In this document: positions 7,181 to 62,373 of the stretch, in pieces | Layout of the letters: every line of letters begins with the position of its first letter | Position numbering within the stretch: the first letter of the stretch is position 1 | From: Antedon mediterranea | Lineage: Eukaryota; Animalia; Echinodermata | Direction: 5' to 3' | Length of the DNA stretch: 64,000 bases | NCBI RefSeq assembly: GCF_964355755.1 | Contig: NC_092676.1 | Span: 16,696,871 to 16,760,870 of the forward strand | Notes under the pieces: generated by a model | Told to the model about the DNA's origin: nothing | Database searches by the model: none | The model's input: only the letters and a program-made list of their open reading frames with translations | Made by a program: the position numbers and the translations under genes

Positions 7181-7966
7181 TTCCCGCAATATACCAGTAT
7201 GATGCTGGCGTCGTGCCGGTATCGTTACCGGCATATACCCATTCTCATCGGACTATCGTGCCGTAAATATAACCGGTATATACCGGCTTTCTGTGAGAAA
7301 AGAGTCGGACATAAGGCCTAAAAAAAAAATTGTTTGTTTGCTGTCAAGTATTTTTTTTGGTAGGGGGGGCGGGTGGAAAAAAGTTGTTTTTTTGTTTTTT
7401 TTTTTTAATGTTAAATTCTCTGTTAATTGCTCGCGAATTTGAGAGTAACAAAACACACTGAATAAAACAACGAGCTCAAACATCTATTCATAATTTGTTT
7501 CACACTTTAATTCTGTTTTGGGCGCGTTAGGCCCCGTGTCTAAACTAGCCTAGGCTAGGCCTACTACTACACAGTAGGTCGTTGTTAGCAGGCCTAATTA
7601 AATATTTTAATTTTTAGAAGTTAGTGTACCGTATATTTTGGTGTATAAGTCGCACCTGTGTATAATAAGACGCACCCGACCCCTAACTGAGAGTAAAATA
7701 TCGGTATTTTGTATATCGTCGATGTATAAGACGGCCGCGCCCAGCCTCAACAAGAAGGGAAGTTCCCCATTCCGTCAGTTCTTTCTAACTTGTTATGAAT
7801 GAGTTTCGTACGCCGCAACATCGAGTGCATGACCGCACGTGTGTGTGGGCTAGCCTCGCTCGATCCTTTTATCGAGAGGCGCACGTTTTCACGGACAATC
7901 GTATTCGATTAGTATCTATGTATCCTAGAAGTGTGTACGCTAGGTCTATGCTATAATCAACTGGAG

Positions 7967-10179: not shown

Positions 10180-10213
10180 GTATTACTATGGACCTATAGG
10201 TCCATGGTATTAC
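10180..10213. other. Putative P/Galileo-type excision footprint
   Basis: GTATTAC + TATGGACCTATAGGTCCATG (20-bp palindrome, first base C>T) + GTATTAC. Confidence 0.6.
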
Positions 10214-30124: not shown

Positions 30125-32620
30125 CAGAAACATTATGAACATAACGTAATAGAGACAAAGAACGTCCACAGATTTTGCAGAATTGTAAGATTTTGATTAT
30201 ACGATGTAGTGACAGAGAAAGACCCGTAAAGAAAACCTGTTTAGATAGATACTTACAGAAGGTTAGACTTTTGGAGTATTCCAAGTGCACTATACATGAA
30301 TGATGATATAATTTCAACAGACATTCGGCCATCAATTCTTTCAGACCATCAAGCGATATCACTTAAGCTGTTTGATAATCAACACAGAAAAGTGCCTGGA
30401 ATATGGAAAATAAATAATAGTATATTTTCTGAGGAAGTATATTCCTCGACCATTAAAAACATTATTTAAAAAGAAAAAAAAATGAATATAACCTCAACCC
30501 TATCCAAGTATGAGAATTGTTGAAAGTAAAAATAAAAGAATATACTATTAAATATTCTGTTATAAAGAAAAAAGAAGGAAAAAAAAAAAGAAATTAATTC
30601 AAGAAATCAAAGAACTTTACATTAGACAAGACATATGACATAAAGATAGAAAGCACATTAAAAAGCAAATCAAAGGACTTGGAAAATATGTATCTAATAG
30701 AAGCACAAGGCGCCAAAATTCGATCTAGGATTGAATGGTTTGAGAAAGGAGAAAAAAATAATAAATTTTTCCTAGGATTAGAAAAAAATAACGCAAAAAG
30801 GAAACATGTTACAAAATTATTAAAAAATAATGGAAAATACACATCAAATGAAGATGAAATATTAAAAGAACAAGTAAGCTTTTATGAAAAGTTGTATGCA
30901 TGTAAAACAATTCCACAGGGTAGAAACACTAAAATAAATACATTTTCTTATGACAACTCTGTGAAATGTGAAGGATTAATATCATCAGTAGAAGAACTTA
31001 CAAATGCTATAGAAAAAATGAAACTCAACAAAAGTCCAGGTTCGGATGGTTTGAGTGTTGAATTTTATAGACATGTTTGGGTTGATATTAAAGATATGTT
31101 ATGTGACGCTTTGAATCACTGCTATATTAGCAAAAGATTAGGCGGCTCACAAAGACTAGGTATTATAAATCTATTGTTGAAAGGCGGACAAAGAGAAAAA
31201 CTAGAAACTGGAGGCCTATAACACTACTGAATGTAGATTATAAAGTAATGGCTCATGTTCTCTCCAATAGAATGCAAAGTGTAATTGGATCTATAATTGG
31301 ATATGATCAGAAAATGTCAAAGGGAGATTTGGAGGATAGAATATTAGGTTAGTAGAAGATGTATTGTCATATACAGAAAATAACAATCAGCCAGGTGCAA
31401 TAGTTTTTCTAGACTTTTCCAAGGCGTTTGATTCTATAGATAGAAATTTAATGTTTATATGTCTGAAAAAATATGGTTTTGGACAGTCATTAATTAACTG
31501 GATAAAAACTATATACTGTATACAGATACGCAATGCCTTGTAACCCACAATGGTTGGATATCTGAAAGATTCAATATGAGATGTGGTGTAAGACAGGGCT
31601 TTCCTTTGTCTGCTTATAATAGCAACTAATATAAGAAACTTTAACAGCTTTAAAGTTAAACAATATTGTATATTGTTTAGAGCCGCAAAATTTACAAGAA
31701 ATTAAGTCACAACACTTATGGAAAAACAAATTTATAACATCAATTGAGGGAAAATCTCTATATTTCAACACCTGGTTAAACTCTGGATACAAAAGAGTAA
31801 ATTATATAGTCGTTAATAACAGGTTATTGACTGCAGCAGAAATTATTCCAACTCTGTCGAATAAACAGAATGGATTAATTGAATACTTTGCAACAATAAA
31901 TGCAATACCTGATATATGGAAAGAACAAATAAGGTTGGAAAATGCACGCATAGATATACAATTAAGAGAACATAATATATTTCATAATAGGATAAGATCG
32001 TCTTACGATTATAAGCAGTTTATAAATGGTATATGTATTATTCCAAATCCACAAATGAAATTGGGAAATAGAATTTATAGATGAAATTATTGACCGGAAT
32101 GAAATATGGAATAGAAAAGTATGTAGAATGAAACACATGGTAAAAGTAGCTCAATTTAATTTTAAGTTGTTACATCAAATCCTTATATGTAAAAAAAGAC
32201 TAAAAAGATGGAAATTATCCACAACAGAAAAATGTAATAAGTGTAAGAATCATATAGAAAATGAAAAACACTTATTAATTGCATGTAAAACTATTCAACT
32301 GGTCTGGAAAAAGTTTAAAGATATGCTGGTTCAGTGTCTTCCAAATGAGGTTACAGTACAGCAAGACTTCCCAAAGTGGGTTAGTGTAATTTTGGGAACA
32401 ACAAACAAACTTGTAAACGAATTAATTTCAGTTTTTACTTTTTGTATATATAAATCCTCCATAATATTATAAAGAACTAGAAACGACAGAAAAAAAAAAG
32501 AATCTGCAAATATTTGGGGGCTATTTAAACCTCAATTATAAACCTCATAAATAATGAGTATTGATCAGAAATGGAAAAATAGTAAAGACAGGATATTTGA
32601 CCTATTGAATTATTAAAATA
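30125..32620 (+). mobile_element. L1/Tx1 ORF2 pseudogene with an internal deletion of the RT core
   Basis: PGIWKINN, GAKIRSRIEWFEKGEK, KSPGSDGLSVEFY, WRPITLLNVDYK, FLDFSKAFDSI, GVRQGFPLS, then a jump to the C-terminal region ending FNFKLLHQIL..CNKC..ENEKHLLIAC; many frameshifts. Confidence 0.9.
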
Positions 32621-39916: not shown

Positions 39917-40038
39917 CATTAGTTTCAGCTTGACAACTGCCATTTTGTTATGTGGCTAGTGATGCTTCCTTCCTGCAGGGGGCTATCGCCAGTAATGAAT
40001 ACTTGATAACACCATTCTACTATAATACTATAGGCCTA

Positions 40039-40071
40039 GTCTAATCATGGAGGATACCTCCATGGTCTAAT
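40039..40071. other. Putative P/Galileo-type excision footprint
   Basis: GTCTAAT + CATGGAGG-ATA-CCTCCATG + GTCTAAT. Confidence 0.65.
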
Positions 40072-40589
40072 GTAGACCTACAGATATGAGATATTTTTAG
40101 GAATATGATTGTGAATGATGGATGACTTTTATACATAACAAGAATTATGAGCGTTACACTACAGCAACAACATTGGTTAGACGACGCCATGATTCACGTG
40201 TATAAACATAGGAACGGTTTGTTATGATTTTATACCCACTCGGATTTTAGACGCCGGTTCGCCATTTCTCTCTATTGTATATCCTGACAGACAGGACTTG
40301 AATTTACCCTTCTTACAGTAGGTAATACTAGCTACTGCTGATCTTTTGGTTAACTAAAGGCCAAAAATGCATTGTTATGACACTTGCCATCAGCATGTCA
40401 TGCTTGTCATGCTTGAAAAGCGCCTGACATACCAGTTATTTGCTACTAGTACTAGATACTGTATACTGTAGGTTTTAATTTTCCATAGATTTTGATTTAA
40501 TAGCGCCCTCTATGTTTGGATGTATTTTGCAAAAGCTGTAACAGTAACAAAAAAAGGGTGTTACTAAACACCCTTTTTTTCTTACCATT

Positions 40590-40810
40590 TTTAATGAGGG
40601 TGATCCATCCAGCAATTGCTGATCATTAGGGACCCTCAGAGGTTCACAAGACAAACATGTACAGAAGATGCTCTACATAAACAAAGTCTTATTACAAGTC
40701 TTTGGGAGTGGAGTTGTAATTTTGTCCTTAGAAAAAATCCTGACATGTGACAGGACTTCAGCATGGTAGTTAAGCATCATAACCACCAAGCCACAACTCC
40801 ACTCCAACCA
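40590..40810 (-). mobile_element. Old tRNA-derived SINE remnant
   Basis: Minus strand GTGGCTTGGTGGTTATGATGCT (A-box-like head); body degraded. Confidence 0.35.
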
Positions 40811-43800
40811 ACCTTCTTTATTATTTATACTATTATCTATTGATATGCTATTATCTTTGATATTTTCATTTTTTCCAAGTTGGGACCTCTGCATACAGAC
40901 TGTATAATTGCTTAAAAAATATACTGTACAACAATATAAATTATAATTATAATAAAGCACAAAAAAGATAAAATATTCTCAAGAACATCCTAGGACTTTA
41001 CCCATATAATATTACAATGAAAGTCAGGAAATTCATCTCTAAATTTACGTCAGATTTCTACCACTGTAGCATTGTATTTCATGAATTTATTTATCAACTG
41101 TAATCATCCATTTACAAAGATATTCAGAAAATACTGTTATTCAAGATATTAACTAAGTGGCAAAAGGAAGAAAAAAATAACCACCCACTTATTTTTATTG
41201 CACTGCTCTAACTCCTTAATTCAATTTGTAACGCTCTATTTCATAAAGTCAATCTGCCTTTAAGGAAGAGAATTAAAAAAAAAATATGGCTTAAGTTATG
41301 TTATATCACTGTTATCAGTGTGAGTGTTTTAAGGATACAGAGAAGGAAACAAATTGGAAATGCACTATGTCATTAGAATTCATTGGCTGTGCTATATTTA
41401 TTACAAACCAAAGCTTTTAGTTGACTATAAATTGCTTGCTTATTGCAAATTCACTTTGCTATATTGACTAAAGCAATGTGAGATACAGTCAATCTATACA
41501 ATACAGTGACTTGCTTTGAAATATACGGCTGTTTCATTGATTTTTGGTTGTCTGTATAAAATGGCAAGAGCCATGAGATCGGTATATGATTTGTATTCCT
41601 GTTGGCCATTTTCTATTCACCAATTCTACATGAGATATAGGTGAGTCTAGTTTCCTTGGTATTTGGTTTAGTAATAGTATTCAGATAAATAAAAATTCTA
41701 AATTATACAACAAGGAGGTCAATGAATATGAGTATTGCTGAACTGAGTGTGCTTCTTTGAATATGAAAATAGGCATTGCATAAATAATTTGTTTTCCTTC
41801 TGAATAATTTCCACAAACTAGCTTGAATTATAGTTTTTCTATTTTCTTCGCCTGTGCTGTGCCTAATAATTCAGTAGAAACTATTGATTGAAAATTTAAA
41901 ATTAAAAACATAAAGGTGACTTACTGTAGTGTAAAACCTTTTTAAAAATAGCCTTCAAGTTCAAGTATTGACTGTCTATCACACATGTTTGAGTTTAATC
42001 CCAACCCCTAATTTAGGCTAAGTTCAGTTCAAAAAGGAACTTTATGGTAATTATACAATCTAAGAATCCCCACACTAATTATCTCTAATTTTCCAAAATT
42101 GTACCTCTGGGAGTGGGACTACTGTACTACTGTACTAAGCTATCAATGTCTAATTAGCTAATTTACAGTATAATTTAAATTCTTCCAAAATTGGAGTGCA
42201 AACCTTCCTCGCGAATGGTTTAAAATAAAAAAATCAAAATCTTGGTCTAGCCACTTGTTAAAACGAGTAATGAGTATTTTATATTGTGCAAAAATGGAAA
42301 AAATAATTTCATTTTGCGAAAGATTCTATTTCACCTCGTGGAATTATTTTACCATTGCACTTGTAAACATTCATTATTTGTGTATTTAATATAATAATAT
42401 CTTTAATAATTTTATGTTATGGTCTGTCTTACTCTTATGTGCCAAATAAAAAATAATCATTTCAATTTTAACTGCTTTAACTGCTTGTACTGTACATGGT
42501 TTTAAATATTAAAAAATGACTACAATTAGTAATTTTTTATCAGGGTTCATAATTGAGATTTAATATTCAATGACTGATGAGGAAGTCTCAATATGACGGT
42601 AGAAATAATCAAGATTTCTTACAACTCTGAATAAATAATCTTTTTCATATCAAGATTACAGTTTTATTGATTCTGCAAAGTACAGATGTTTCATGTTGTA
42701 TTTTACCCATAAAGTACTGTAGTGTTCAGTAATTGCACGATTCAGTATCTGAATGAACAAGATAATTGAATGGCATATAGTACTGATAGTATATCTTGTG
42801 ATAAATGTTATGATGCAGTATAGTTAGTACACATTCCAGTATTGAACTCTATCATTATTTTGAGGATTGCTATAATACAGTTAAAAATGCTTCGTATTTT
42901 TTGGTAAGTACGCCAAATTTAGGTTTATACAGTACTGTATTCTGGATACAACATAATGCTTGCTATTATGCCATATTGAAATTTGCCCAACATGACTCAT
43001 AACATAGTGACAGTCATGGTATTCATCTGGACATAACATTTGAAAGTCTTGAACTATCTCAAACCCCACCAAATGAAATGTTTATGACGTAGTGTACAGT
43101 ATTTTAAAGTTTGCAATATTCCAATCATAATTCTTAAAATACCATACAGGACAAATTATATTTGTTATTATTTTTCTCCATTAGAAAACGAAAATATAAT
43201 AATTTATAATATTATAATTATTTATTATTAATAATATAATAATACAATATTAAAGATACAGCAACAAAAAGTTGAGAGCAATTTTAAGGGGATAGCTTGA
43301 CAGCTTTTCATGGGGATTTTCAAGGTTAAAATACAATATTAATTATTATGTTTTCTGATTACCTTTTAAACTGTATTTATATTGTGTATTCATTCCAGAT
43401 TTTTATTGTATTAAATTATTATAAAATTTATTTGTTAATGAGAAATTTTAAGCATTGTTTAATACCTTGATATGATAAATTCAAATTTACATTGATTCAG
43501 TTGTTTTTTTGTTTCTCAGCCGTTGGGCTGCCTTCCGTTTGTACTATTTATGTGTTTTTTTATGAATAAAATACCTATATTATATTAAAGTACAGTATAC
43601 TGTATAGTTCTCTGTCATTCTTCACATAGACAGTTGCTTTTGATGTTTGTAAATAAACCACACTCATGTTTTAATTATTAAATTTATTGTTTATCAGAAA
43701 AACTGCAGGCTGGTTACATTCACATGGTATAATTCAGTTGTTTAAATCAGCACCTTTTTGTCGGATAAAAAGAATTTTGTATAAAAGTTTTTCATTATAA

Positions 43801-44217
43801 TTATATAATATTGTACAAAGTCTATTTTCTTTTTATTAATGTTTTCAGGTACAGTAATGGAGAGTTTTATAATATTTTTCTTGTTTTTTAACTGTATTTG
43901 TCTTTTTGCATTATTGAATAATGTTGTTACTGTATGTTTACTTTTTTTAAACAAACAAAAATAAATGGTTTGTTATTGTTGAGACTGAAATAAAGCTATT
44001 TGACTTTGATTGCTTGAAATCAAGCTTTCGTCTATTATCTTATGGGAATATTGTGTTGTGATGTTTGATATTATAGCCTAAAGAAGAAATTGCTTTATCC
44101 TTTGAGATTACAATTAATGAATGGGAAAGATTTCTTGAATAAATGATCAGAGAGATTCTTGTCTACAGTAATGGAGAAATTTGTAAAATTTTGTTCGCAA
44201 TATTCTTTTTTTGATAG

Positions 44218-44372
44218 GCGACCGAGGAAGGAGAAGAAGCCAACTACGGTGGAGGAAAAGAAATTATTCTTAGAGCCACAGTATACGAAATCACAGGTTA
44301 TTGACCTTGATATACGAGAACTTGTCAGGTTGCCCAAAGGGTTAGAACTTAACGAATGGCTTGCATCTAATT
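44218..44372 (+). CDS. MOB2: MOB kinase activator 2, exon 2
   Basis: TTTTTTTGATAG acceptor, T|GTAAGT donor; RPRKEKKPTTVEEKKLFLEPQY..LVRLPKGLELNEWLASN. Confidence 0.95.
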
Positions 44373-45174
44373 GTAAGTATGAAAATCTGTTTGTGATGCA
44401 TGCAGCGCTCAAAATAATATGATAATTATTAAACAAACTTGAAATGACATTATGAGGAAAGATTTCTTCAGTCGCCTGATAATGTTCTGAATTTTACCTA
44501 TTTTCTTCTAAAGGAAATTACTGTACATTTACTGCAAACCATACATTAATAATAAATGTACGCTTATGTTGATGCAGAACGCCACTCAACTGAAAGTTTG
44601 TGCAATTCACTATGTTGAATTGAACTAAAAAGAACTAAATTGAAGGAATGAATGAGCGCTTATGTCGGCACTGGAAATGAATGTAACTAGTCCTGGTTAA
44701 CATAATTTGTGCACGTGTGACGCCATTCAAAGTGAAATGAAAGGAACTTTTTTATCATATTTTTTGCGCCTGTCAGTTGCGTTCAGTTGAGGTCAATTGC
44801 ATGTCGACACAGTTGAGTTAAATTCCATTTCGACATAAGCACACAAACACACACGACAGAAAGATTGTATGAAGTCGACCAACTATTTTACCCCATTGCA
44901 CTGTTGAAAAATAAATACTATCAATTGCTTTAATTTTCCTTTTGTTTTTCCTTCCTCTGTTAAAAACATTTTTGTTGCGCCTGTCAGTTGCGTTCAGTTG
45001 AGGTCAGTTGTTGTCGACACAGTTGAGTTGAGTTCCGTGTCAACAAAGCACACAAACACACACGGCAGAATGATTGTATGAAGTCAACCAACTATTTGTG
45101 ACTCCGTTCCTCTGTTAACAAATAAGAAATACTATTCATTGCTTTTATTTTGCTCTTGTTTTTTTCTTCCTCAG

Positions 45175-45271
45175 GTTTATCATTTTTCAATAACATCAAT
45201 GTATTGTATGGAGTGGTGTCTGAATTCTGTACTAATGAAACATGTCCACTAATGGTCGCTCCTTGCAATAC
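45175..45271 (+). CDS. MOB2: MOB kinase activator 2, exon 3
   Basis: CTTCCTCAG acceptor, AC|GTAAGT donor; CLSFFNNINVLYGVVSEFCTNETCPLMVAPCNT (Zn-binding Cys pair). Not in the ORF track. Confidence 0.95.
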
Positions 45272-45764
45272 GTAAGTTTGAAACATTATCATTACACTTT
45301 TTAGTAAAAAATAATGCAAAAAAATAAAAAAATAGTGGGTCATACAATCAACATGTGCATAATCTAAGATAAATTATGTAAATTGTTTCGTTTTTATTTG
45401 TAATGTTTAAAAAACATTGTCTACAAAAAATATCAGAGACCATCTGAAAATCATGTGAGCGTATCAATTGTGTCATCTTGTCCTCTCTCATTTTATTATT
45501 TCGTTTCTAATAAACCTACTGATTGTTTAGCCTGGATGCTTAAATTGACCCTCGTAAAATATAAAAAAAAGCTATTGTCTTGTTATGTTGTTCAACCAGT
45601 TAGCATTTCGATATATTTGTCTGGACACCTGATTCCAGCCCAAGTATTATACATATGAAAGGCCATGTGTGCCAAAATATTTATCTTTTCATCAGTATTA
45701 CAGTAGTGAGACACAGCACTACATACAAATGTTTTAATATCTTTATTGAAATGTATATTTGCAG

Positions 45765-45889
45765 TCAGTACTTTTGGTATGATGATAAAGGAAAGAAGAT
45801 GAAATGTACAGGGCCACAATACACAGACTATGTCATGAGTTATATACAAATGAACATGAAGGATGAAACAGTGTTTCCTGTTAAATATG
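45765..45889 (+). CDS. MOB2: MOB kinase activator 2, exon 4
   Basis: TTTGCAG acceptor, G|GTGAGT donor; QYFWYDDKGKKMKCTGPQYTDYVM..VFPVKYG. Confidence 0.95.
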
Positions 45890-46669
45890 GTGAGTATGCA
45901 TCTGATGCCTAACTAAATTATACTAAAATGCACAGTTCTTAGAATCTTAGTGCCCAAAAGGTTCTAAAAGCGAGCGATAGATTGACAAGTTTACACTCAT
46001 ATTGTCAGAAATGTGAAGATCTAGTGTAAAGTAACTGGCACTTTAAAAATAAATTTAGTGATCTCATCATAGGTAGCTCATAAGATTTACTCTCACAATG
46101 CCATTTACCACATTGCTAAAAGTATACAAGAATGACACAATATTCAAGTCAAGTAAATTTATTGTCATTTGTAAACGTATAAAAAACATTTAAATTGAAA
46201 TGAATTTGAACGTAAAGTAAAAACACTTTCAACTATTGATTGATAGAATGTACTCATCACTTCTGATCTAATACCAAATTGTCTCAGTCTCTAGTAAGAA
46301 AATAATAATAATAATTTATAACTTCAATAACATCATAATTGTTTGCTAACAAAAATAGAACAAATGTGATGGTTTCATTGCAGATGTAATTCAAATTTAA
46401 TTTCTGAAATAAACCCTAACCCTAAACCCCATAATTTATACAACTATTGAGCAGCTATATACTGTAGACATTTAGCACTTGTAAGCTATGTGGTCTATAG
46501 GTAAATAAATAAGGCACCTAATTTTGTGAAACATATAAGCACTGTATTACAGAGTAAAAAAAAGGTAAACCCAAACCAAACCCAAGAATTCCAGTCTAGT
46601 GAGCTGGAGGTCATTATGGGTCACAGCACAAGTATAGTTGTCACCAACAACATACTGAAACCATAATGA

Positions 46670-46945
46670 ACATAAGTGTGTGGCACACTGCATTGGACTA
46701 CTGATTGTGAGTTTGAATCCAACGCTTGTCACATTGCTTGTATCCTTTAGGCACAAGACACTTTTAAACTTAATTTGCCTCTCGTCACCCAAGTGTACAT
46801 AATGTGTACCTGGTACTGTAGGGTCAAAACATGACTGCGCTGATTTTGGGAGTATGATTCCACATGTGTTTACTGTTTGATTAAAAAATAATCGCGGTGA
46901 TAATGTGAAGCTCTTAGAGGCAAAGTGCTATTTAAGAACTACCTA
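46670..46945 (+). mobile_element. tRNA-derived SINE with conserved central domain and L2-like tail
   Basis: B-box GAGTTTGAATCC, core GTATCCTTTAGGCACAAGACACTT..CACCCAAGTGTACATAATGTGTACC, tail TGTGAAGCTCTTAGAG..GTGCTATTTAAGAA. Confidence 0.6.
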
Positions 46946-46982
46946 TGTTATACCTATATATAATTTTGATTTTATTTTGCAG

Positions 46983-47254
46983 GTCAAGTCTTCCCTAGCA
47001 ATATCGAGAGCATTATGCATAAGATTCTACGATACTTATTTCACGTTTTAGCTCACATCTATCACTCGCACTTTGAACAGCTAGTCTTCTTCCAGCTTCA
47101 CCCCCACCTCAACTGCGTCCTCGTACAACTTGTTCTTTTCTCATATGAGTTTCACCTTTTGGAATCCAAAGATTTCACTGTACTAGAGGATTTAATCGCA
47201 GAATTAGATATATCTGCTCCTTCAGATTCTAACAAAGCCGCAGACAACTCGTAA
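46983..47254 (+). CDS. MOB2: MOB kinase activator 2, exon 5 (last); spliced CDS 666 nt, 221 aa
   Basis: TTTTGCAG acceptor; GQVFPSNIESIMHKILRYLFHVLAHIYHSHF..LHPHLN..EFHLLE..EDL; TAA at 47252-47254. Confidence 0.95.
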
Positions 47255-47919
47255 ACAATAAATGCATATTTTATAATTAATATTTTCTTGAATAACATGT
47301 CTTATTATTATGCTAAAATCATCTGTTTGAATTTACAGTAGTATAAAATATCACGTTTGTATGCTTTTTCTTATTAAGTATTTACTTTTTAGTGAATATT
47401 AGGTTTTAATTTTTCTAATTAATTTATTTAAAAATGTACTAATCATTTTGATATCAACAATACATATACAACAAGTATTTTATGGTAATTTTTAACCTAC
47501 AAAACCCAATGTGAGCTACATAAAAACAGGGTTGGGCATGCGTTCATGTGGGTACTGTATGGTGTTTCTCAACATGAGTTTGTACTCTATTTCAGCTGTG
47601 CCTTTTTATGTGACATGCTGATATCAGCATTGAGATTCTTAAAAGGCTCCACAGTACAGTTCATGTGTTTCTGTGCTCATTGTGGAAGAAATGTAAAACA
47701 TGTTCAACTTAAAAATACCATAAAATAGTTTCATACAGACAAATACAGAACAAAAAAAATAAACATACAAGAACGATGTGGAGAATTAGCAAAGAAAAAC
47801 AATTAGATTGAGAGTGTTGATTAAATGTGGTATTTTTATGTATTACATTGTGCATACAAGGCATTTTGGTAAACTGTATTGGTAACTGTATTGGTAAACA
47901 TTTGTTTGATATGGTCTAA

Positions 47920-48054
47920 AGCTCTGTGTACTGTACACTATCAAACTTTATGTGACAACAAAATGTGATGTGCCCATATTATATAGACATGATGATGTCA
48001 TATCAATACCATATTTGGGCACATCACACATTTTTTGATGGTGTAGACAGAGCT
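47920..48054. mobile_element. Harbinger-like MITE in the presumed MOB2 3' UTR
   Basis: TIR AGCTCTGT(C/G)TACAC(C/T)ATCAAA with TWA flanks; related shorter copy at ~21372-21453. Confidence 0.7.
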
Positions 48055-50823
48055 TTAAAACATGTTAACTCTTCCATTTGTGTACATATTAATTTTCACT
48101 CCTAATTTAAAGAACAATTAATACCATGTTGGCCTCATTGCAAAGTTTAGTACGTCCAAGGTAGAATTGAATAGTAAAAGAAGCTTTGATTGATAACTTG
48201 CCATAAAGTGATCGTGATCATTAACTCTTGTGTGGAACCATGAGTTTTTCCTTGTTGTTTTTTATCATCACACTATAGTCTATTATGTACGCTTAAGCTG
48301 ATCCAAATCATCTTTGAGTTAAGCTGGTTTTCCATTAGGTGAATTTAATCACGCAAATCACCAGAATAATGCTCATACATATTCATAATTCCAACACATT
48401 TTTGTGACTCTAAAAATTGTACAACCAATCAGAACTCTGGAATGTTCGATTTGCGCGAATATTAAGTGGTTGTGTTAGCAATTTATTCTCATATACAGTA
48501 TGTCCTGTATTGTTCACCATGATAAATCTGTTGTGCCTCTGACATAACACAGTATATTGAGTGTTTAATCTGTTAGAGGAAATATATCATTATCAATTAG
48601 ATTAACATCTTTTAAAATATTTTTATCAACTTTGTTAAAAATTTTGATGTGTATAATAAATAATTATATAATTTATACAAGTTATAGTAGGACTGTTTCA
48701 GGTTGTTGTGGAGATTATCATTTATATGATTAAGTTAAACACTAATTTATTATTGCATTATTTATGTTTATTTTGTATTTCAGTTTGGGTTTTCAAAAAA
48801 TAATAATAGAAATACAGGTACAATAAAGAATTTTAAATGTTGTCTTTTCTAAAAGTTGTTTCAGACAAAAGCAATATATTTTGACCCCAAAGACTGTTCT
48901 CAAACATATAAGATGTTACAATGCTCAAAGAGTAAAACAGGGCAAATAAGGTCTCAGATTCAGGTGTCATGGCAATTTTTTTTCTTTTAAATGTCTTCAC
49001 CTTAAACTTGATTTGTATTGAAAAGGTCAACTTGTGTTAAATTTTTATTTGGGATATTAATAGGTTGCCTGTCAGGGTGGACATTTTTTCAAGTTTACTA
49101 ACTAATATCTGATGTTTATAATCAATTCATATTGTTTAATACGTAATGACTTGGTACCTGATATTTCCAAGTTGGGTGGTCAACATAAATAAATTATTAT
49201 CTTTAATGTGGAAGCATTAATATGCATCAGGTATTTTTCTACTGTAGGCATAATGTCATTTGTTTCTGCCCAGCAGCCATACCATCATGATTTTCATGTT
49301 CATCATGATTTTTTAAATGAGAATGGAACATACAGATATTTTATTTTATTTAATAGTTGAGTTTTTTTTTAGCCTAGACTTGGTTGTTATATTGATATTT
49401 TTAAGCTCTGTTTTGTGGACAGTTTTGAGTGCAATAAAATAACCAGTTTATAGTTTAAAATGCATACACTAGTTGGAAAAAAGGCAGATGTACAGTATGA
49501 ACATTTACACTAATGATGTTTTGAGTCTGAGATGTCCTGTATAAATGTATAAATAAGTGTATGAAATATAGAAAAGAAGGAATAATCATATAATTGTAAC
49601 GTCTGTTTTAGGTGACTGTTATATTGTAGGCCTACTTACGGCAATACACCATTGTATAAAAAAAAAACATTCTTCTAATTCCTGTGATTTTTTTATTTGT
49701 TAAAACAGCTAATTTCATTGCATTTAACAAGTTGCAGGTACCAATGTGAGATCGGTATCAAGTAGTAATCTTATTTTATTACATTTATTGGTTTTTAGTT
49801 TTAAATATATTAAATTAAAATGGAAATATAAATTACTAATCATATTTACTTATTATCAATAAATTGTATGATTAAAATATCATAAATAGAAAACACTTTA
49901 CTATTTATTTAAAAATATAATTAACTAATTGTAATATAAATTACTAATCTTATTTACTTTGACAACTTTATACTGATTACCAATACATTTTATTATGATT
50001 GAAATATCATAGAATACTTTACTACTATTAAAACAGGAACACTTTGTCACAAATGATAATTATGACTAAGCTAAGATTCCCTTGTATAGTATTTCTTTTT
50101 TACTATACCTAATAACTATACCTGGGCAGATTTCTTGTATTCTTGATCACCATAAGCAAACATTATTTGCCTCAAACCTCCAGTATTTTTTAATCCCACC
50201 TCAAATCTGTTACATTCTACCATGGAGATGTTATCTCTATGGTTATACACAGGCCTACACAGTGTCAATAATCTAACTGGTGTTTGGTTAAAATCATATG
50301 TAGAATCAGAATCATATATTCATGATGCATTGTTCACGTTTAGTTAATTTAAGTGTATTTTTAGTTTATATAAGATTATATTATTTTTGTTAATAATAAT
50401 AGGATGTTAGTATGTTTGCCTATGCTGATTTTAAATGTGTGAATTTAATTCAGAGCTTACAATTACATTAAATAGTGGTAGTCAGAATATATCTCTCCTT
50501 GTTCTAAACAAAGAGTTGTAAAATAATATAAACTCTCTGATCTAAATGAAGATTACAAATAAATGCAAACACATAAACTACAAAAAGGTGTTTTCCTTGT
50601 TTTTATACACCTACAGAGAGTGTGGTCATCTAAAGTTGGGAACTTGGGAGAGTTAGTGAACTATCTCTATGCTGGGATCATTCAAAAAGTGAATGAAACT
50701 GAATATAAATAGATGAGTTGATATTGATGGGCCATATCAACCCAACTATTTAAAAAAAAGCGGAATACATTCTTTTTTTGCAGTGTTTTTAGTCAATGAT
50801 CGAATACAGTACTGCAGTTCAGC

Positions 50824-51083
50824 AGCACGTCAACATTACCATTACGTCATAAAATGAGCTAAAAATAGCAGATTATTATTCAAGACGTCACTCTAGAACA
50901 TAATTTATACTCTACTAAAAATTACGAAAAATATGATTTTAGTTGTTCAGAAATTCAGTTGTGAATATTAAAAATATTACATGACCCTGTTTGGATTGAA
51001 CCGATAATACTTATTAAATTAATTACATTTTTTTTTTACGTTTCGTCATTATTTACTCGAAAAAAAAGATGATGCAATCAGTT
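50824..51083 (+). promoter_or_regulatory. PPP1R15 promoter region with CRE/ATF and C/EBP-ATF (CARE/AARE) motifs
   Basis: CACGTCA (50826), ATTACGTCAT (50841-50850), GACGTCAC (50884), TGATGCAAT (51070-51078) and an adjacent TCAGTT initiator-like motif. Confidence 0.6.
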
Positions 51084-51550: not shown

Positions 51551-53431
51551 ATGGATCGAAACTTGATTCAAAATGAACACGAGCCTTCCGTATGGCAAAC
51601 TTTTTTTAGGCCAACACATTGTGCTAGGCCTAGCGTGACGTTAGTAGCGACCCACCTGGCGGGAAAACCGGAGGTTCCCGACCAACATGTCCACTTACAG
51701 AACCGGCGGATAAAAAGTGGAACTTCGAGGCTTAGAGTAAATTTTTTACGGCTTAATAGCCAGGGAGAGGACAGCAGAAGCCCACCTATCTTTCCTAGTT
51801 TTGAATATTCATTCAATCACTCTGAAGAAAATAAGGAAATGTCAATAATAAAGACAAGAACAGAAATAAATAGGCCTCTCACTCTCACTGCTGCTGTTAA
51901 TTCTACAGCTCTAGGCAGAGACTGCTGGGAAAAATTTAGTCCACCAACTATTAAACAAAATAAAAGTATATTACCAGCAAATATGTATGACTTGATCACT
52001 GAAATGGAAGAAGGTGGACAGCCAGAAAATGTATTTCAAATAAAAAAAAGTTTGGAATTAAATAAAGTGTTTAAACCAGAAGACTGGGTTGTGCCAAATG
52101 AAAATCAAATGCTGCACGTTCAAACTCAAAATAAAAGTATTTTTTCCAATGTTTTACCATTAACTAGAGGTCTGCCATATTTAAGGCCAACAGTTCCATT
52201 TGGCTTGAGTGCCTCAGCTATGTTATTTAGAAGATATAAAAAACAAGAGCCATCTATTGATTCAACGATGAAATCAAAGATAAATTCTCAAGAGAATAAT
52301 GAAAAAGATACTCAAGTTCTCAATAAATCATCAATTTCATTAGCTAAGTCTGAACTTGCGAATTTGATAGTAAAAACTTTAACAATGAATTTACCTCAAG
52401 ATGTAGAGAGTATTTCCAAACATAGAACTGTAGACAATGACAGTAAAAATATTGAAATAGAACAGCGAAAGGAACACATAAAGGAAAATAAAGAACTTCA
52501 GTCTGCAATTGATATGGAAAATGACAATCATAAAAAGGATTTTGAAGCATTTTCAAGGATTGTGCAAGTTCATGATTGTGAAGCAGAAACGAGCTCCTGT
52601 TATTATAGTTCAGAGGTCAGTGATCAAGAGGCTGGTCACCAAGTTGACAGCGAGAAAGATTCTGATGAAGAATATAGTGATGAAGAAGAGGATGGAGGTA
52701 GATATAGCGATACTTCAGGGTCGTTATCAGATTTTGAAAGCGATACTGAGTCATATGACGCATCAAGTGAATATGAAACAGATTCTGAGGTTGAGAGTGA
52801 TAATGAATCATGGGCTAGTGATCTCAAAGATCCTATCCCAGTTTGTAAAAATGACATTGTCTCTTTTATCTTAGGCCAAGGTAGTGATGCTACTGGTGGC
52901 AAGGACAGTGGCTTTGATGAAGGTGATGAGACTTCCATTGATGAAATGTCCAAAAAACAAGATCATTTCAATGACGACCATCTATGGCAGTCTCTTCTAA
53001 AGTCTGGTGATCCATACAACCCAATCAATGGATGGAAATGCTACCCTAGCAGTCAATTCCATAGCAAAGACAATTCAAATCGAAAAGCAACCATCGACAA
53101 TTCTGATAAACAGTTACAAATGCTAGAAACTGAACTTCAAAATAGCTTGATCGATGTTACACGTGAGAATGACTTTCAGCCAAATATCAATTTTGCTACC
53201 TCTTGTGAACCAAATAATGATATAGCACCTAAATCGGTTGCAACATCATGTGCTGTTTTTAAATGCCTTATTAATACTTGTGCTTCAGCTTCTAATGAAC
53301 CCAAGTTAAACAGTGAAGTTAACAAATATAAAAGTGACTATACAAATGCTGCAATTGTTGGAGGCATAATGAACTTTTCGAAAAGCTGTTTTAAGAATTG
53401 CAGAAAACAAAATGTCAAAAACACAAAGAGA
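51551..53431 (+). CDS. PPP1R15: Protein phosphatase 1 regulatory subunit 15 (GADD34/CReP family), large coding exon 1
   Basis: 627 codons from AAAATGG; acidic/Ser-rich region, CKNDIVSFILG, DSGFDE, LWQSLLKSGDPYNP; AGA|GTAAGT phase-0 donor after KNTKR. Confidence 0.85.
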
Positions 53432-53918
53432 GTAAGTACTGTACAGCCTATAGTTTTATTATTAATTATAACTACTAACAAATAACTTAATAACAAATAA
53501 CTTAATAACATTTTTGATCAGTCGGTAAAATTGTTCTATTATTTCTATTTTCATTTCATCATCATGAGTGATTTTGATACAGAACTTTTAACAACACAAC
53601 ACATTCAGCATCATTATCACTCTTTTCATTCATCATCATCATTCATCACCGTCATCATCATCACTGTCATCAATATCATCATCTTTTTGTATCAGAAAAC
53701 CTTTTTTCTTTATAGCCACACACATGGGTCTAATTTAAAATAAACAGATCACTAATTAACTCGGACAGCATCGTATGACAAGGACTGACGAAACGTCTTG
53801 ACTCGTCGGTGCTGTCTGAGTTAAATCCTGATGAGACAAGTCATCTTGAGATACTGTAGCGTCGGGCATAGTTTTTAGGTTTGTCGGGAGAACTTTAAAA
53901 TTTAAATAATAAATTTAA

Positions 53919-54988
53919 AATGGACCTGAAATGGATTTTCGATTTTTTTCATTTTAGAATGATGTTTTTGGGGCTATTAGATGTTGCTAGAATGTATGTT
54001 GTTACAAAATATAAATTGGCCCTTTTGGGGAAAGCCCCATTTGAAAATCAAAAAAATTCGCGGGTGACGTCACTTTGCGAATATATTCCTATCCCTCCAA
54101 TGAACAATTTGCAGTTTTTTGGCTATAACTCTTGAAATCTATGGAGTATTTTCTAAAAAATGCTTGTGCATTTGCAGAAACGTATTTAGAATTTTTTTAG
54201 ATAAAAATATTACCGTATAAACGGTTATTCATCGAGTAAATGACGATTTAAAATCTTCAAATCAACTGTTTTTTTCTGGCAATACCGAAGTTAGCCTGGC
54301 AACGTTGTCCGGGATACAGCGCCGTGGGCAATGATGCGTATCCATATTTTCCGTTCGTGTATTTTGTATATCGTTCGTAATTTATACTGCTAAAATTTCT
54401 TTAGTTTTTAGTTTAGCAGAATTAAATTAGTAATATGAGATGATAATTTATTTGTCACGAATCAGGCAGTTCGAAAACGAATTTTATTCATATTTTACTT
54501 TAACTTGACAATGAGCGCAGCAAGTTGTTTATATCGCTTTGGTCCTTGGGGATGCACCTGAAACGGAGCCTCGCCGCATGATGTGGGTGGTGGGTGGTGG
54601 ATCGACTTAGCGCGCTGGATTGGGGGCCTAGGCCTACTAAAGGTTTGGGAGGTAGGCCTTCCAAATTTGGGATTTAGAACAAACAAAGTAAATTTTAGGG
54701 ACCTATATTTCAACAACATTAGATATTGAATAAATTAGTATTAGTGTCAACGCGTATCTTTCCAGGCCGTCGATCATTCACTGACTATATGGCGGCATAC
54801 ACGCTCTCGATATCGTCGTGTGTGTATATGTGACGTCGTGAATTTTCGCTAATTTATTAAGGTATCTTAAAATTTCGTTTTTTCTCAAAATACTATACAT
54901 TTTGTTTTTATTTGTATGTTAATTTGATACATTTAAATAACATGTGTGAATTTCTTGAAAATCGAAAGTCCATTTCATCAGGTCCATT
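53919..54988. mobile_element. TTAA-targeting non-autonomous element, Kolobok-like, in the PPP1R15 intron
   Basis: TIR AATGGACCTGA(TGA)AATGGA(T/C)TTTCGATTTT; TTAA at 53915-53918 and 54989-54992. Confidence 0.75.
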
Positions 54989-57916
54989 TTAACAAAACAT
55001 AATTTTCTAACTACAGTACAAACTATATTTATGGTAAAAACGTTCAACATACTGCTACTGTACAAAACTAAGAACATTAAACTAAAATTAATAACAATAA
55101 TACTCATTGATAATTACAAAAAATATAAATATCTTTTTTATAGAGAAGGGTAGGGGGAGCATGTACTGTACAGTACATTCAGAATCTCATCAGCTGTAAT
55201 TTTCATAGCTACTGTACAGCCCTGGGTGGCAATAGTGAAATCAGTTAAAATCCTGTTTAAAATCACTATTTTATTACCTGTACACTATACACTCTGGTTT
55301 TATAGTATTACAGTATTAAGTCATGGTAGTAACAAAAACCTTACACATGTTTTATCATTGGACATTGCTCAATGACTATACTGCATTGCACCAGCCATAC
55401 TACAGTGGTGATGACACACTCTGCATGTTGGCCAGTGTTTAGTCACCATTCAACAATGTCTGTTTACCATAGGGATATTAGTGAACACAGTCTGTATTGA
55501 TGACTGTTTTTTCTATTCAATAATGATTACCTTAGTTTGAAGAAAAAGTTCAGGTTACAGTGTGATATTACTGTACCTCATCCACCCTTGTTCTGTATGC
55601 CATAATCTTACTTATATTATAGATTTTCATAAATTCTCTCTTTTTCATTGAATCGGTAAATTCCATGTACTGTATTGAATTTTATCTAATCCACCTCTTG
55701 TAGTGTACAAAGATTGTGACTATTGTATCAGGTAAACCCTACCTATAAAAGATTTGTTGATACTGATCCATTCTCTAAACTGTACAGTAAACATACAGTA
55801 CAAATAATGCATTTCTACAGTATGGTGAGTTTAATGATGATATTATTTTATGAGGTGAATGAATGACTATATTTATTTAATTCTTTTTTCTATCAATACA
55901 AAATATTTATTTATTTTAATATAAGTTATAACCCACAACAGTTCGCTTTTTACATCTTGATTAATTGTGTCGAAGTCGACTGTAGGCAGTTTAATTTTTT
56001 AGTACTGTAGATCACATCACATTAATTTTAACTTGTTTTATTTAAATATAAAATGAAGACTTGGCTACTGTACCTACAGTACAGTATTGTCAGAGCTAGG
56101 CGCTGCTTACAGTATATATACAGTAGTTGGCTATGCAGAAAATTAGCCAGTGCAGAGTCGACAGTAAGCAGTTGTATCCCCCAGTTTCTAGCAATCTGTG
56201 GTGATCAGATACTGTACTGTACAGTAGTAGACATTGAAAATAAAAATGGTTTATTTACCATTTAGCTCCTTCCACCTTCCCCCCCCCCCCCACACTTTTG
56301 TTTCCAGAAATACAACCACAATCATTTTAGCCTTGGTAATAATCATACAATACTCATATTCAAAACAACTGTGTTCCGGGTAGTGTTTTCAGTATACTGT
56401 TCTATTCTATTCACTCTTGAACAATGGTTTATATCAATTTATTGATCAATGATATTAGGGAAAAATCCCTACATGGATTTATGTTTCTAATATAGACAGA
56501 TTTACAGTGGGAGAGCATTGTCATGTACTGTTAGTTTCAGTTTCACTAGGGATTATTTGTTATGACATAATTTTGTTTACCTACTATAGCAGCTTACTGT
56601 ACTGTACACCCACACGGTTGTTACTGGTAGTGTACAGTAGTACTGTACTGTACTTACTTTATACAGGGTATAGTAAGTATTAGTAAAAATATCAAAGACA
56701 AGAACTAGATTTGAACTTTGATGAGTTAGATCCGCACAACAAACACAATGTGCACATGTTCAGTACTTTACGTAAAAATGACAGCTTGCATGAATTATAA
56801 GTTTAAATTTATCATTCGGAGGAACTGTAAAAAGATAAAAATATACTGTATTATACTGTACAGGTAAAATTTAGTGACCCAAATTATTAATTATTATGAC
56901 ATCATTCAAATAAAAATATTTTTAACTCATGTGAATGAAAGATACAATAATTGAATAAAGAAAATATTAAAATCTTGAGAAAATGGAGTACGGATAAGCG
57001 AGATATGTCCTATTAAAAGTGACGGAGCAATATCGAAATGTACAAAAATCCTATATTTTATATCTATATGTGGAAGGCCATTATGACGTCACAACATCCG
57101 AGGGTTAACAATTTTACATGAATTAATTGTACTATACAACTTTTAAACAGGTATTCCACTCTTGGGGGTTCATCGTACAGTCTAGTAGTATCTATCATAT
57201 TTAAAATAGGAATGAGATTGTGTGTGTATGAGCGTAACCCTTCTGTGAAACATGCCATTTTTACTCCACAGAAAGTTGGCCCACGATTATTCAGTGTCAA
57301 TAAAAACTTTCTGGTTTTATCTACTGTTTGAGCAACCATTGAAATTAATAAAATCGTGTGCAAATGAAGTTCCTCTGACGGATTGATTGTATTTGTTTAA
57401 TGTTTTAAATTTGCGCAAAAAAGTTTGTAATGAATACAAAAAAAAAAGAAAAGCCTTTTCAGATCACAGGTATACAGGGTTTACCTGTGGAAGGCACCTT
57501 TTTATGACACTGACTTTCATTGGACAAAATCTCAATGAACAAGATTACAGTAGGGTACAAACCTACAGTACTGGACAATACAAAAATACAATTTTGACTG
57601 CAATCAATCAAATTTACTTTTGTATTATCAATGTTCATCCCAATTTCGACACTTCATTTTGTATTAAGGAAAGGGTTTGTTTAATTGTCATTGAGTCTAA
57701 ATACTTTGCTTTATGTTGACCCTAGAAAGGTCAAAAGGTCATCACAGATTTTGAAAAAGTGCAAACATTTTAGGCAGGCATGCAGTAAAAAACTGTACTT
57801 GCCCTAATGTACTACAGTATAATCATAACATTATCATACAAATAATAATTAACCATTTTTTTGAACATGAACATTAAAAATATTTATTTTAAAATTGTAT
57901 TTTATTTTGTTGTCAG

Positions 57917-58126
57917 GTGTCTTTTAGCTGTAACGATGTAAGCTCTTTTGAGAACCCTGAGTGGTGCGATGATTATCGGGAAACACGTAAACCTTACTGG
58001 GAGTCATTTGCTCGTGATCGATGTCGTTTCCGAAAAAGGATTCAAGAAATTAGTGATTCCATCAGCTATTGCTTTGACCCAGACCACCGAAAAAAGATGA
58101 TGGATAAACTGAAAGTTAACGTTTGA
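57917..58126 (+). CDS. PPP1R15: PPP1R15 last exon: PP1-binding and eIF2-alpha-binding domain; spliced protein 696 aa
   Basis: TTTTGTTGTCAG acceptor; splicing creates KR|VSF (RVxF); RKPYWESFARDRCRFRKRI matches the GADD34/CReP/ICP34.5 signature RxxxWxxxAxDRxRFxxRI. Confidence 0.92.
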   Translation: MSFSCNDVSSFENPEWCDDYRETRKPYWESFARDRCRFRKRIQEISDSISYCFDPDHRKKMMDKLKVNV

Positions 58127-58246
58127 TTTGTAAACTGAATTCAGTGTTCTCTCGAAGCTTGTTTTTGCGAAGGAAATTTATCGAAAATTGGATCCCGGTA
58201 TAAAGATTGTGTAAACAAATATTGACATAAAATAAACACTTGCCTA

Positions 58247-58400
58247 ATACAGTATACATATTCTTTGCTTTGAAAGTTTATGGTAAAACTATTGGTTGAG
58301 GCGCCTGAAATAGTAGGACCTGGTTAGCCCTACTATTTCAGGCCCATACTGTACTTTATAACCATGAGCTTGAAATATGCAAAGAATATACTAACTGTAT
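58247..58400. repeat. Imperfect ~150-bp inverted repeat (MITE-like) in the PPP1R15 3' region
   Basis: Core GCCTGAAATAGTAGG / CCTACTATTTCAGGC with outer arms ATATTCTTTGC / GCAAAGAATAT and ATACAGT / ACTGTAT. Confidence 0.75.
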
Positions 58401-58569
58401 GGCTCAAACATTAACACACATCTACAGTACAGTACAGTACCTACTGTTCTTTTAGTAAAAGTAACATTTTATTAATTTTGTTTCCATCTATTTTCCAATA
58501 AATATTTTCAAAGGAGGCTAGACAATGTTTTTGTACAGGAGTTGTAGGTGGTGCGCTTTTAGAATTCTG

Positions 58570-58745
58570 TACAAATAATGAATGATTATGAGTTAAATAG
58601 TACAAGTAATTTCATGAGATGAAAATTCTATTTTCCAGAGGCGATAGCCCAGTGTAAATTGAATTTTATGTTTCACCGAATGAAATTATGTGTACCATTC
58701 CATGTTGAATACGTATGAAAATATAAACGCATTCATTATTTGTTT
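58570..58745. repeat. Palindromic repeat, possibly Crypton-like MITE
   Basis: ACAAATAATGAATG / CATTCATTATTTGT arms with centre GAGGCGATAGCCCAG; related piece at ~42262-42385. Confidence 0.45.
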
Positions 58746-61127
58746 TATATACTATTTTAGGCCTAGGTAGATTCATTATCATTTCATTCAGATTGAATGA
58801 AAGGTACTGTACATTTTATTCCGATTAAAAGTTAGGACATTGATGGGAAATGTCTGAGCTAATACTGTACTGTAATATTTAATATTATAATCTTTAAGAA
58901 ATATAGTTTTTATATTTTGATTTTTTTTTTTACTATTCTACAGTTAGTATATGAAGTATCGCTTATATTATGTAATATAACAATAGCTCTATAAATTCTA
59001 CTATATATCCTAAAAATTAAAAAGCACAGATTTTAAATTTAAAAATATTGAGCTCAACTTGATTGACCATGTAACTGTTTGAAATTCAGTAACATTTAAG
59101 AAATAAAGAGATTTATAAAGGTACCAAAGGTTAAAATGTTATTTTAAATTGTAAATAGTTTTTAAAAAGAATTCTTTAGTTTACCCAGAAGTTGGCTAAT
59201 TAACTGGTAAAACCTAATCAAGAAGTTACAGTAGAAAAAGAATTACTGTATTTATGATATGCATGATATATGAAACACACTTCTTTCATGATACAATGTA
59301 GATTGCACTATATAATCATACACTAGACTCACTTTGTTAGAACTAATGTAATATGGTAATTGTATTCACTTGCACATGGGAGTATATGCCTAACATGTCT
59401 AACCAAAGCCATGTAGTTACTATATATATTTAGGAAGGAACTAAACTGTTTAATCCTTGCCAACTGTTAAACAAACTAATAATAATTTATATATACAATG
59501 GTTTTGTTTGTTCTTTCCAGTACTAAACATATACAGTATTGTATATAAACGGTTTTATATAAAAATATTAAATTAAATATTATTTTGTTGGTAAATTTTA
59601 ACTGTTGCAGGTAAAACCATCTGTATTTTTTCGTGCAATTTAATAAATATACTTATAATCGAATTATTACTTGTATTTTGTGTAATAGCATCTCCAATAT
59701 TCCCCATCCCCATTTCCTCACAGAAAAGTACAGTAATTAATCCTCGATGGCACTGGACTTAAAATTACTGTAAAACTATACTGCGTGAAAATATGAAAGT
59801 GCGAACGACGATGGTAAAATCTTCTGGTGACATTTGGTAAAGCTACTGGTTAAATTTACCAGTCCAGTGCGAACAGGGTTTTATTGTTTTCAATTTAATT
59901 CGGCCTTGTGGGAAGAAAATTAAATGACGAAAACGAACGGTGTATGAAATAATTTACAGAGAACTAATGTAGGCCTATTAATCTATATGCACATGCTTAG
60001 TAATGTCCAAGTCTATTACCTGATATATATATAAACAAATCAGGCAAAGAACATTAATTCTAAACCGCCTGGTAATATACTGAAATTTAATTTAGGCGGG
60101 ATCTCCAAAGAGATACTTTTATATGTTCATTGCCTAATGCGTTTATATACATAAAAGTATATCTTCGGAGATCCCGCCTCGTGAATAAATACTGAAAGAT
60201 GAGGGCGTATCAATTTGATCTCTGGTGCGCGTGCGTACAACTGAGGACTAGTGCTGTTCCGCCGTACCACGCCGAGAATGTTAAAGAGTCGCTTTTTATT
60301 TTTGTATCTCCATTGAGATCCAGCCACTGATACCCACAGCATTGTCATTTTTTTAAGTAATTTGCCTTTGGATTTATATATATATATATATAAACACATC
60401 AGGCAATGAACATTAATTCTAAACCGCCCGGTGATATACTGAAATTTTAATTAATTAATTTGAAACGATAAAGATGAGGAAATCTGTGAGAATGAGAAAA
60501 AGTCGCCCCAACCGAGACTCGAATATATTCCGTGCCTTACTTATCTGGATAAACCGACAATAGCGCTGGTACAAGATACTCGAATAGTAGAAAATTCATT
60601 GAACACCCCTCTCCATAAATGATAAGTCTTGGAACCGAGTCACTTTTAAGCGTGGCGGTGTGCCGCTAGTATTATTAATTAGTAAATATTTCTTAGCAAA
60701 GAAGTAGTTTAGAAGTCAAACAATGCATGTTTTCGAGATACTCGAACGTCGTTAAAGATTTTCGCTACCTACGGTGTTCAGATCACCACATGAGCACATG
60801 AAGCCTTAATTCCAGGAGCAGAGGAAAGTAGATACTACTATATTTTTAGTTACCTAGATAAACCGCCCCCGTCTTCTCACACAAGAGGTCTTGAGAAATT
60901 ATATTGGTGGTTTGTGGAAATGGTCCCACAAACCACAGGGCGTTGTTTGTGAACTGATCATTATTTTACTGACTAGGGTTTCTTGTTTGTGTGACTTATG
61001 CCCGAATCTCATGCATTTTTTTAAATTTCTGTCCAGTAGGCCTAAAAGCACCTTAAACTCACCGACAATAAACATGCGGAAATAAATTACGAGTATCAAA
61101 CAATGAAAGAATATACCTTTATTGGCA

Positions 61128-62277: not shown

Positions 62278-62373
62278 GTGGCATACAATCACAACTCTGG
62301 CATCCGTTTGTTTCCACGCGGTATCCATAGTAACAAGGCCATGGACATGATCGTTCCGGACAAAACGTCTTAC
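62278..62373 (-). CDS. Antistasin-domain exon (protease-inhibitor module) of an unresolved gene or pseudogene
   Basis: TTTTGTTTCAAAG acceptor, C|GTAAAT donor, 96 nt, phase 1-1; KTFCPERSCPWPCYYGYRVETNGCQSCDCMP = C-x4-C-x3-C-x2-G-Y-x4-N-G-C-x2-C-x-C. Confidence 0.75.

Follow-up and report, generated by a model that had tools for sequence, protein, structure and literature searches.

How did one intron come to hold two seven-letter words at more than 20 times the density expected by chance? Within the window (the whole 64,000-nucleotide stretch of DNA analysed here), a sequence-only reading had counted by hand about 27 exact copies of TACAGTA or TACTGTA in some 1.85 kb, and had proposed that the intron was written by the footprints of transposon excision. 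Exactly 27 words were found at 55010-56862 (1,853 bp), 12 TACAGTA and 15 TACTGTA (both forms together, TACWGTA), that is, one per 70 bases. Chance levels were obtained from dinucleotide shuffles, 1000 for the stretch and 30 for the window. A mean of 1.16 words, with a maximum of 5, was expected in the stretch, so that the earlier estimate of fewer than one was slightly low, which is immaterial to the enrichment. In the whole window, 106 words were present versus 12.2 expected (maximum, 20). Indeed, among all 64 TA-NNN-TA words in this DNA of 33% GC, those enclosing CTG (54) and CAG (52) rivalled the one enclosing TTT (55).

The two forms were equally frequent both in the stretch (12:15, p = 0.70) and in the window (52:54, p = 0.92), and this lack of strand bias is what a mismatch-resolved footprint predicts. 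The attribution of the words to the Tc1/mariner type of footprint also held as to form, since they are bounded by TA and identical to the canonical footprints of Sleeping Beauty. We consider it highly probable that TACAGTA and TACTGTA are excision scars in which TA has become TA-C(A/T)G-TA. Nevertheless, to call the intron written by footprints was an overstatement: exact words make up 7.1% of the bases of the stretch, and 10.6% when the excess of one-mismatch forms is counted.

Gene context and density of the words

The long frame at 51551 is identical to P0001, a protein named in its source as coming from Antedon mediterranea, a feather star, and, because it matches PF10488 (phosphatase-1 binding family), it is predicted to be a PPP1R15/GADD34-like gene. 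Its intron (Table 1) splits the KNTKR/VSF phosphatase-binding motif, and neither exon contains TACWGTA. Judging from the depth of same-species contigs, positions 55169-56855 are single-copy and the flanking repeats are hundreds of times deeper. The boundaries of the word-dense stretch coincide with the edges of high-copy repeats, in which words number 1 in 1,285 bp on one side and 0 in 475 bp on the other. Therefore, the stretch, with a CpG o/e of 0.29, is the old core of the PPP1R15 intron, and its edges are simply young repeats.

Table 1. Positions of the genes, repeats, words and word chains considered in the window
Feature	Position	Strand	Basis or remarks
Mixed chain TA-GCC-TA-GGC-TA-GGCC-TA	7546..7563	.	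similar chains near 11207-11230 and 12170-12191
tRNA match	6115-6186		sole Rfam match in window
TACTGTA at +5-nt frameshift, reverse-transcriptase region of dead LINE	31514..31520	+	anchor spacing vs homologs
MOB-family gene locus	39951..50850	+	PF03637; CpG o/e 0.42; 29 TACWGTA, 2 TAGGCCTA
PPP1R15 (GADD34/CReP-like) exon 1, predicted	51551..53431	+	100% identical to protein P0001; PF10488
PPP1R15 sole intron, GT...AG	53432..57916	+	sequence matched to P0001
TACTGTA in multicopy repeat	53852..53858	.	other copies have plain TA, exactly 5 letters fewer
TTAA-flanked high-copy element with terminal inverted repeats, left edge of stretch	53919..54988	.	0 TACWGTA
Word-dense stretch, single-copy core of PPP1R15 intron	55010..56862	.	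counts, shuffles, contig depth
Word starts, first half of stretch	55012, 55056, 55164, 55169, 55210, 55309, 55569, 55668, 55783, 55794, 55816, 56003, 56066, 56075
Word starts, second half of stretch	56080, 56108, 56119, 56210, 56215, 56220, 56595, 56600, 56633, 56641, 56646, 56844, 56854
Part of stretch with orthologous contigs from a related organism (run X1)	55309..55747	.	alignment
High-copy repeat, right edge of stretch	56863..57337	.	0 TACWGTA
PPP1R15 exon 2, predicted	57917..58126	+	PF10488 match
PPP1R15 3' region	58127..59988	.	13 TACWGTA, incl. triple chain at 58423
Antistasin-family exon	62180-62404	minus

The density of TACWGTA was 14.6/kb in the stretch, 7.0/kb in the PPP1R15 3' region (13 in 1.86 kb), 2.7/kb in the MOB locus (29 in 10.9 kb), 0.5/kb in the exons and intron of NXPE (1 in 1.86 kb) and approximately 0.75/kb in the first 39.9 kb, the sequence-only reading having described the words as common through the MOB2 introns and both 3' regions and as apparently rarer around NXPE. 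With boundaries chosen post hoc, the stretch was denser than the remaining single-copy intron and 3' DNA (p = 0.009). Relative to the MOB locus, its density was fivefold (p = 2e-9), a difference for which CpG depletion alone does not account.

Forms differing from the words by one mismatch were likewise in excess in the stretch (23 versus 9.9 expected, about 13 in excess), in the rest of the intron and the 3' region (19 versus 9.9), and in the MOB locus (68 versus 45.3), with no excess in the first 39.9 kb (135 versus 137.6). The excess in the gene loci implies a mean decay of about 7-11%, and its restriction to these loci is what neutral marks differing in age should show. The chains through a shared TA described earlier at 55164, 56210 and 56633 are present, but chaining in the stretch was only borderline above random (6 links versus 3.1 expected, p = 0.064); neighbouring words at most 15 bp apart numbered 11 versus 6.0 expected (p = 0.01). 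Window-wide, 7 of the 10 chain links join words of the same orientation.

At the base beside the TA, C and G are enriched and A is depleted across the 96 word blocks in all. This differs from the AT-rich target of Sleeping Beauty, and may reflect a target preference or decayed neighbouring scars. Two words touch putative splice sites. The TACWGTA at 53437-53443 overlaps the PPP1R15 donor site, and that at 44164-44170 occupies the position of a would-be TACAG splice acceptor ahead of the MOB start codon, with a similar run of 14 letters at 43850; by their positions, scars could supply or abut splice signals at both places.

Five-nucleotide gains and the search for a donor element

According to the sequence-only reading, each scar adds 5 bp at a TA. 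A +5-nt gain at a plain TA was encountered at two sites, 31514 and, probably, 53852, and not for the word population at large. A dead LINE has, in its reverse-transcriptase region, 86 nt between a W and the G(V/I)RQG motif, a distance that is 81 nt in intact homologs (18 of 18); the comparison included 24 homologs with the second anchor, 6 of which were without the first, leaving 18 informative. On the evidence of this spacing, the word at 31514 is a +5-nt gain at TA with known polarity. The inserted letters are the exact reverse complement of the adjoining five, as is the case at 2.5% of random TA sites, and a foldback repair origin is possible for this site alone.

At 53852, the five-letter gap was seen in 5, 4 and 5 contigs of runs X2, X4 and X5, which represent one sample. 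The gap accounted for only 1,342 of the 12,389 units of summed depth in X2. There is no local template for this gain, which is compatible with neither slippage nor foldback, and comparison of the copies indicates that the word was probably gained as +5 nt. A multicopy repeat at 53760-53900 carries CTGATGA and GAAAC words, which we take to be reminiscent of a hammerhead ribozyme core; at the gathering threshold, Rfam gave no match for this repeat.

When the stretch is divided into 30 bins, contigs of the related organism cover 13 of them. The window and X1 have the word at 55309 in common, and X1 carries extra TACTGTA words near 55327, 55701 and 55740 that are lacking in the window (about 300 aligned bases). 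One of these cases is a +8 difference rather than a clean 5-bp indel, another opposes TA-G-TA to TA-CTG-TA plus one base (+2/+1), and the third can be read equally well as an indel of 5+1 or as a shared word that has decayed, accompanied by a 6-bp indel. The cases come from two low-depth contigs (2.7-2.8), each is found in a single contig, and all are X1-only, which leaves them without polarity. As far as these alignments go, the comparison shows that words have turned over, but it gives no polarity and no clean peak at 5 bp. Among the matches listed, no heterozygous word was seen in one individual, with 0-4 differences over pieces of 1-5 kb; X2, X4 and X5 come from one sample, differ at 0-4 places across the stretch, and thus hold no useful haplotype information.

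Other words lie in retroelement remnants. The TACWGTA at 336, in a dead retroelement, reads as ordinary in-frame coding (I-L-Y-G), and those at 32352, 6879 and 30105, also in dead retroelements, are in frame or without alignable context. In a GIY-YIG retroelement remnant, TAGGCCTA at 13661-13668 is in frame; at this point the sequence is shorter by two residues in 4 of 7 homologs and of equal length in 3 of 7.

A CAG-ended donor was sought within the window. No convincing inverted TA-CAG pair was found at distances of up to 12 kb, the best one (19/26) being an AT-rich chance similarity, and clustering of the 233 TACAG ends in the window returned known duplicates only. Pfam detected no transposase family in 220 of the 271 stop-free fragments (at least 52 aa) and 11 longer ones, a scan from which the NXPE, PPP1R15, tandem-repeat and LINE pieces were left out. 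Nor was any site encountered that is filled by the element in one allele and scarred in another. The non-canonical footprints of Sleeping Beauty were not enriched (TACATA, 66 versus 92.9 expected; TACGTA, 16 versus 14.2; TACTA, 219 versus 201).

An element at 7315-12558, presumably Zator-like, has 32-bp inverted ends starting with GGCC and TAA on both flanks. Within it lie nested tandem repeats and, at about 7629-12366, a pogo-like element whose ends are of the CCG type. A mixed chain, TA-CCG-TA-CAG-TA, occurs at 29556-29567, suggesting that CCG- and CAG-ended elements may have used the same TA.

A second word class, CpG content and other possible origins

The other outstanding word in the window was TAGGCCTA, present 31 times versus 0.84 expected; TAGGCTA/TAGCCTA occurred 25 times versus 6.9 expected. 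TAGGCCTA was absent from the stretch, appeared twice in the 10.9-kb MOB locus, and had 23 of its 31 copies in the first 39.9 kb. The density of TACWGTA fell with rising CpG o/e per kb (Spearman, -0.53), and the 19 low-CpG bins of 1 kb contained 63 of the 106 TACWGTA versus 3 of the 31 TAGGCCTA (Fisher, 5e-7). With motifs masked and clusters merged, the partition gave p = 5e-4 (100 bp), 0.002 (300 bp) and 0.048 (500 bp), and circular shifts gave p = 0.008 for TACWGTA and 0.027 for TAGGCCTA; the low-CpG DNA comes essentially from two gene loci, MOB and PPP1R15, and from the LINE, a small independent sample. TACWGTA was in excess in CpG-rich bins too (43 in 45 kb).

Thus, the partition between TACWGTA in CpG-poor DNA and TAGGCCTA in CpG-rich DNA is real in this window. 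The sequence-only reading had suggested, from the words together with GGCC and P-type scars, a footprint mutagenesis partitioned by chromatin at genome scale; the split stands in this window, and for the whole genome we only slightly favour a chromatin-linked partition. Targeting to transcribed gene bodies is a candidate explanation drawn from two genes, with CpG depletion serving as the proxy. The methylation of a sea star is described as lying mainly in gene bodies and introns (PMC12550476), so that methylation is likely the cause of the CpG loss in the MOB and PPP1R15 loci.

Several sites of the two classes are worth recording. In CpG-rich DNA at 34939-35046, a hot spot of the second class gathers about 9 copies of TAGGCCTA, TAGGCTA or TAGCCTA in 110 bp. 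An exception to the partition is found at 10172-10840, where five TACWGTA cluster within the nested element although the DNA there is not poor in CpG. In the predicted coding exon of PPP1R15, TAGGCCTA at 51625-51632 is in frame (Arg-Pro), where a 6-bp scar would keep the frame. Mixed chains such as that at 7546 are hard to produce by slippage and suggest that one TA may have been used repeatedly.

Scars could have built up without any chromatin targeting if gene-body DNA is simply old and rarely deleted and repeat-rich intergenic DNA turns over. This explanation, which we hold to be unlikely, draws on the young high-copy repeats with 0-1 words at the edges of the stretch, on the excess of decayed forms in gene loci only, and on the fact that CpG loss itself builds up with age. 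Nevertheless, age should enrich both classes together, yet TAGGCCTA is nearly absent from the gene loci, unless the GGC family was active only recently, in which case the absence of targeting could still hold. Age alone explains the scar-poor young repeats, but not the mutual avoidance of the two word classes. Repair or replication processes that need no transposon (slippage, foldback or template switching, polymerase-theta-type templated insertion) are improbable as a general source. An exact 5-bp tandem duplication fits 15 of the 106 words and an inverted duplication 10 of 106, the LINE site included, and both the prevalence of same-orientation links and the failure to find a donor element in the window would be in keeping with them. 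However, 82 of the 106 words fit neither duplication, nearly all the fits are word-word neighbours, the gain at 53852 is without a local template, and processes that copy any local sequence give no reason for one TA-bounded word family. A pure slippage microsatellite, (TACAG)n, was rejected because the word is a tandem copy of its neighbour in those 15 cases only.

It is very improbable, in our judgement, that the words descend from CCG-type scars (TACCGTA/TACGGTA), left by pogo-like elements such as that at 7629-12366 and altered by the loss of methylated CpG. The window does contain a CCG-ended element and the mixed chain at 29556, the words track CpG-poor DNA, and in a strand-biased form of the process the middle methylated C would be deaminated in a single-stranded overhang, yielding CTG/CAG only. 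The symmetric form, by contrast, predicts TACCATA/TATGGTA in equal numbers, but these were not co-enriched with TACWGTA in the stretch (2 versus 27), at 40-60 kb (9 versus 74) or in the window (16 versus 106, with 14.3 expected), and the comparison that had been proposed as a check excludes symmetric CpG decay. Moreover, TACCGTA/TACGGTA is barely above chance (9 versus 5.2 in the window), and the TACWGTA excess persists in the CpG-rich bins. Selection for binding sites, either of a transcription factor or as microRNA seeds (presumably of the miR-101/144 type), would account for the extreme local density in one intron and for the word at 55309 common to the relative, but it is hardly credible given the strand symmetry and intronic position of the words, the gains in a dead LINE and in a repeat copy, the three words that differ from the relative in about 300 bp, and the smooth decay into one-mismatch forms.

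Proposed origin, significance and known systems

Returning to excision, the scars were probably left by a CAG-ended element of the Tc1/mariner type (IS630-Tc1-mariner/pogo) and accumulated in old, CpG-poor and probably methylated gene-body DNA. Elements that belong to the Tc1/mariner superfamily insert at TA and duplicate it. The proposed sequence of events would begin with the entry of the CAG-ended element at a TA, which is duplicated. On its exit with 3-nt staggered ends, the CAG overhangs would be end-joined to give TA-CAG-TA or TA-CTG-TA, with a net gain of 5 nt. If these events took place in the germ line, the small scar could drift to fixation and the full insertion be lost. Each scar would add a TA, from which chains could form, some of the same-orientation ones probably arising through later slippage. 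Insertion or excision was likely favoured in methylated gene-body chromatin, and, since young repeats are scar-poor and decayed forms are in excess in gene loci only, greater DNA age would amplify the concentration of scars. A family bias could also arise if insertion were targeted, or if selection removed full insertions from expressed genes.

A second, GGC-ended family would likely leave TAGGCCTA, TAGGCTA and TAGCCTA in CpG-rich DNA: full annealing of the overhangs would yield TAGGCTA/TAGCCTA, and pairing through GC would yield TAGGCCTA. All three words are enriched and found chained. With somewhat more doubt than confidence, we suggest that the two families sort the genome, with CAG-ended elements acting in methylated, germ-line-expressed gene bodies and GGC-ended ones in unmethylated DNA, and that scars are a main source of small insertions. 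If this sorting were true, scars would make up to a tenth of some introns and would represent a fossil map of germ-line chromatin and of the jumps of vanished elements.

Excision is the hidden half of the life of DNA transposons and is rarely countable in natural genomes. If the words are scars, past jumps have left in the genome a record that can be counted and dated, from which excision rates, target preferences and germ-line repair choice could be tested from sequence alone, and a non-random process of +5 insertion would be added to models of intron evolution. They also hold a warning for motif-finders, since in genomes of this kind the most enriched words may be scars rather than binding sites.

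The footprint itself is already known, and rice has been the subject of work on excision scars (PMC5023962). In the literature searched, from which subscription papers were mostly absent, no account was found of a natural animal genome saturated with such words, or of their division by CpG class. Among the papers listed as containing TACAGTA, TACTGTA, TACATGTA or TAGGCCTA, the subjects were Sleeping Beauty, microRNA/UTR and promoters of fungi or oomycetes, and TAGGCCTA was in none.

For Sleeping Beauty, TACAGTA and TACTGTA are described as the two canonical footprints, which arise when 3-nt overhangs are end-joined (bioRxiv 10.1101/659086). The likeness extends to the same 7-mers in both forms, the TA boundaries and the net +5 nt; nevertheless, that study deals with an engineered element in cultured cells, where the majority of footprints are non-canonical (10.1101/659086). 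The Antedon words, unlike these, occur once per 70 bp as fixed sequence of the germ line, and the non-canonical forms are not enriched. The scars of Mariner and Harbinger elements in rice likewise present excision as a mutagen near genes, as deduced from a comparison of species (Wicker et al., 2016, PMC5023962). Differently from the present case, the 158 rice excisions left varied scars with flanking substitutions, and the accessible part of the article describes no dominant word or split by CpG class (PMC5023962).

End-joining likewise makes the empty site of Tc1 in C. elegans (PMC13148408). In the germ line of this nematode, repair by homologous recombination is reported to hide excision (PMC13148408). 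In contrast, end-joined scars in Antedon would need to be inherited in bulk, which would be notable given this masking. Lastly, methylation is reported to raise excision for the IR/DR Tc1 elements Sleeping Beauty, Frog Prince and Minos, with no such effect for Tc1, Himar1 or Hsmar1, as shown on plasmids in human cells (Jursch et al., 2013, PMC3680223). This suggests a route by which one Tc1-type family could leave more scars in methylated DNA and other families would not.
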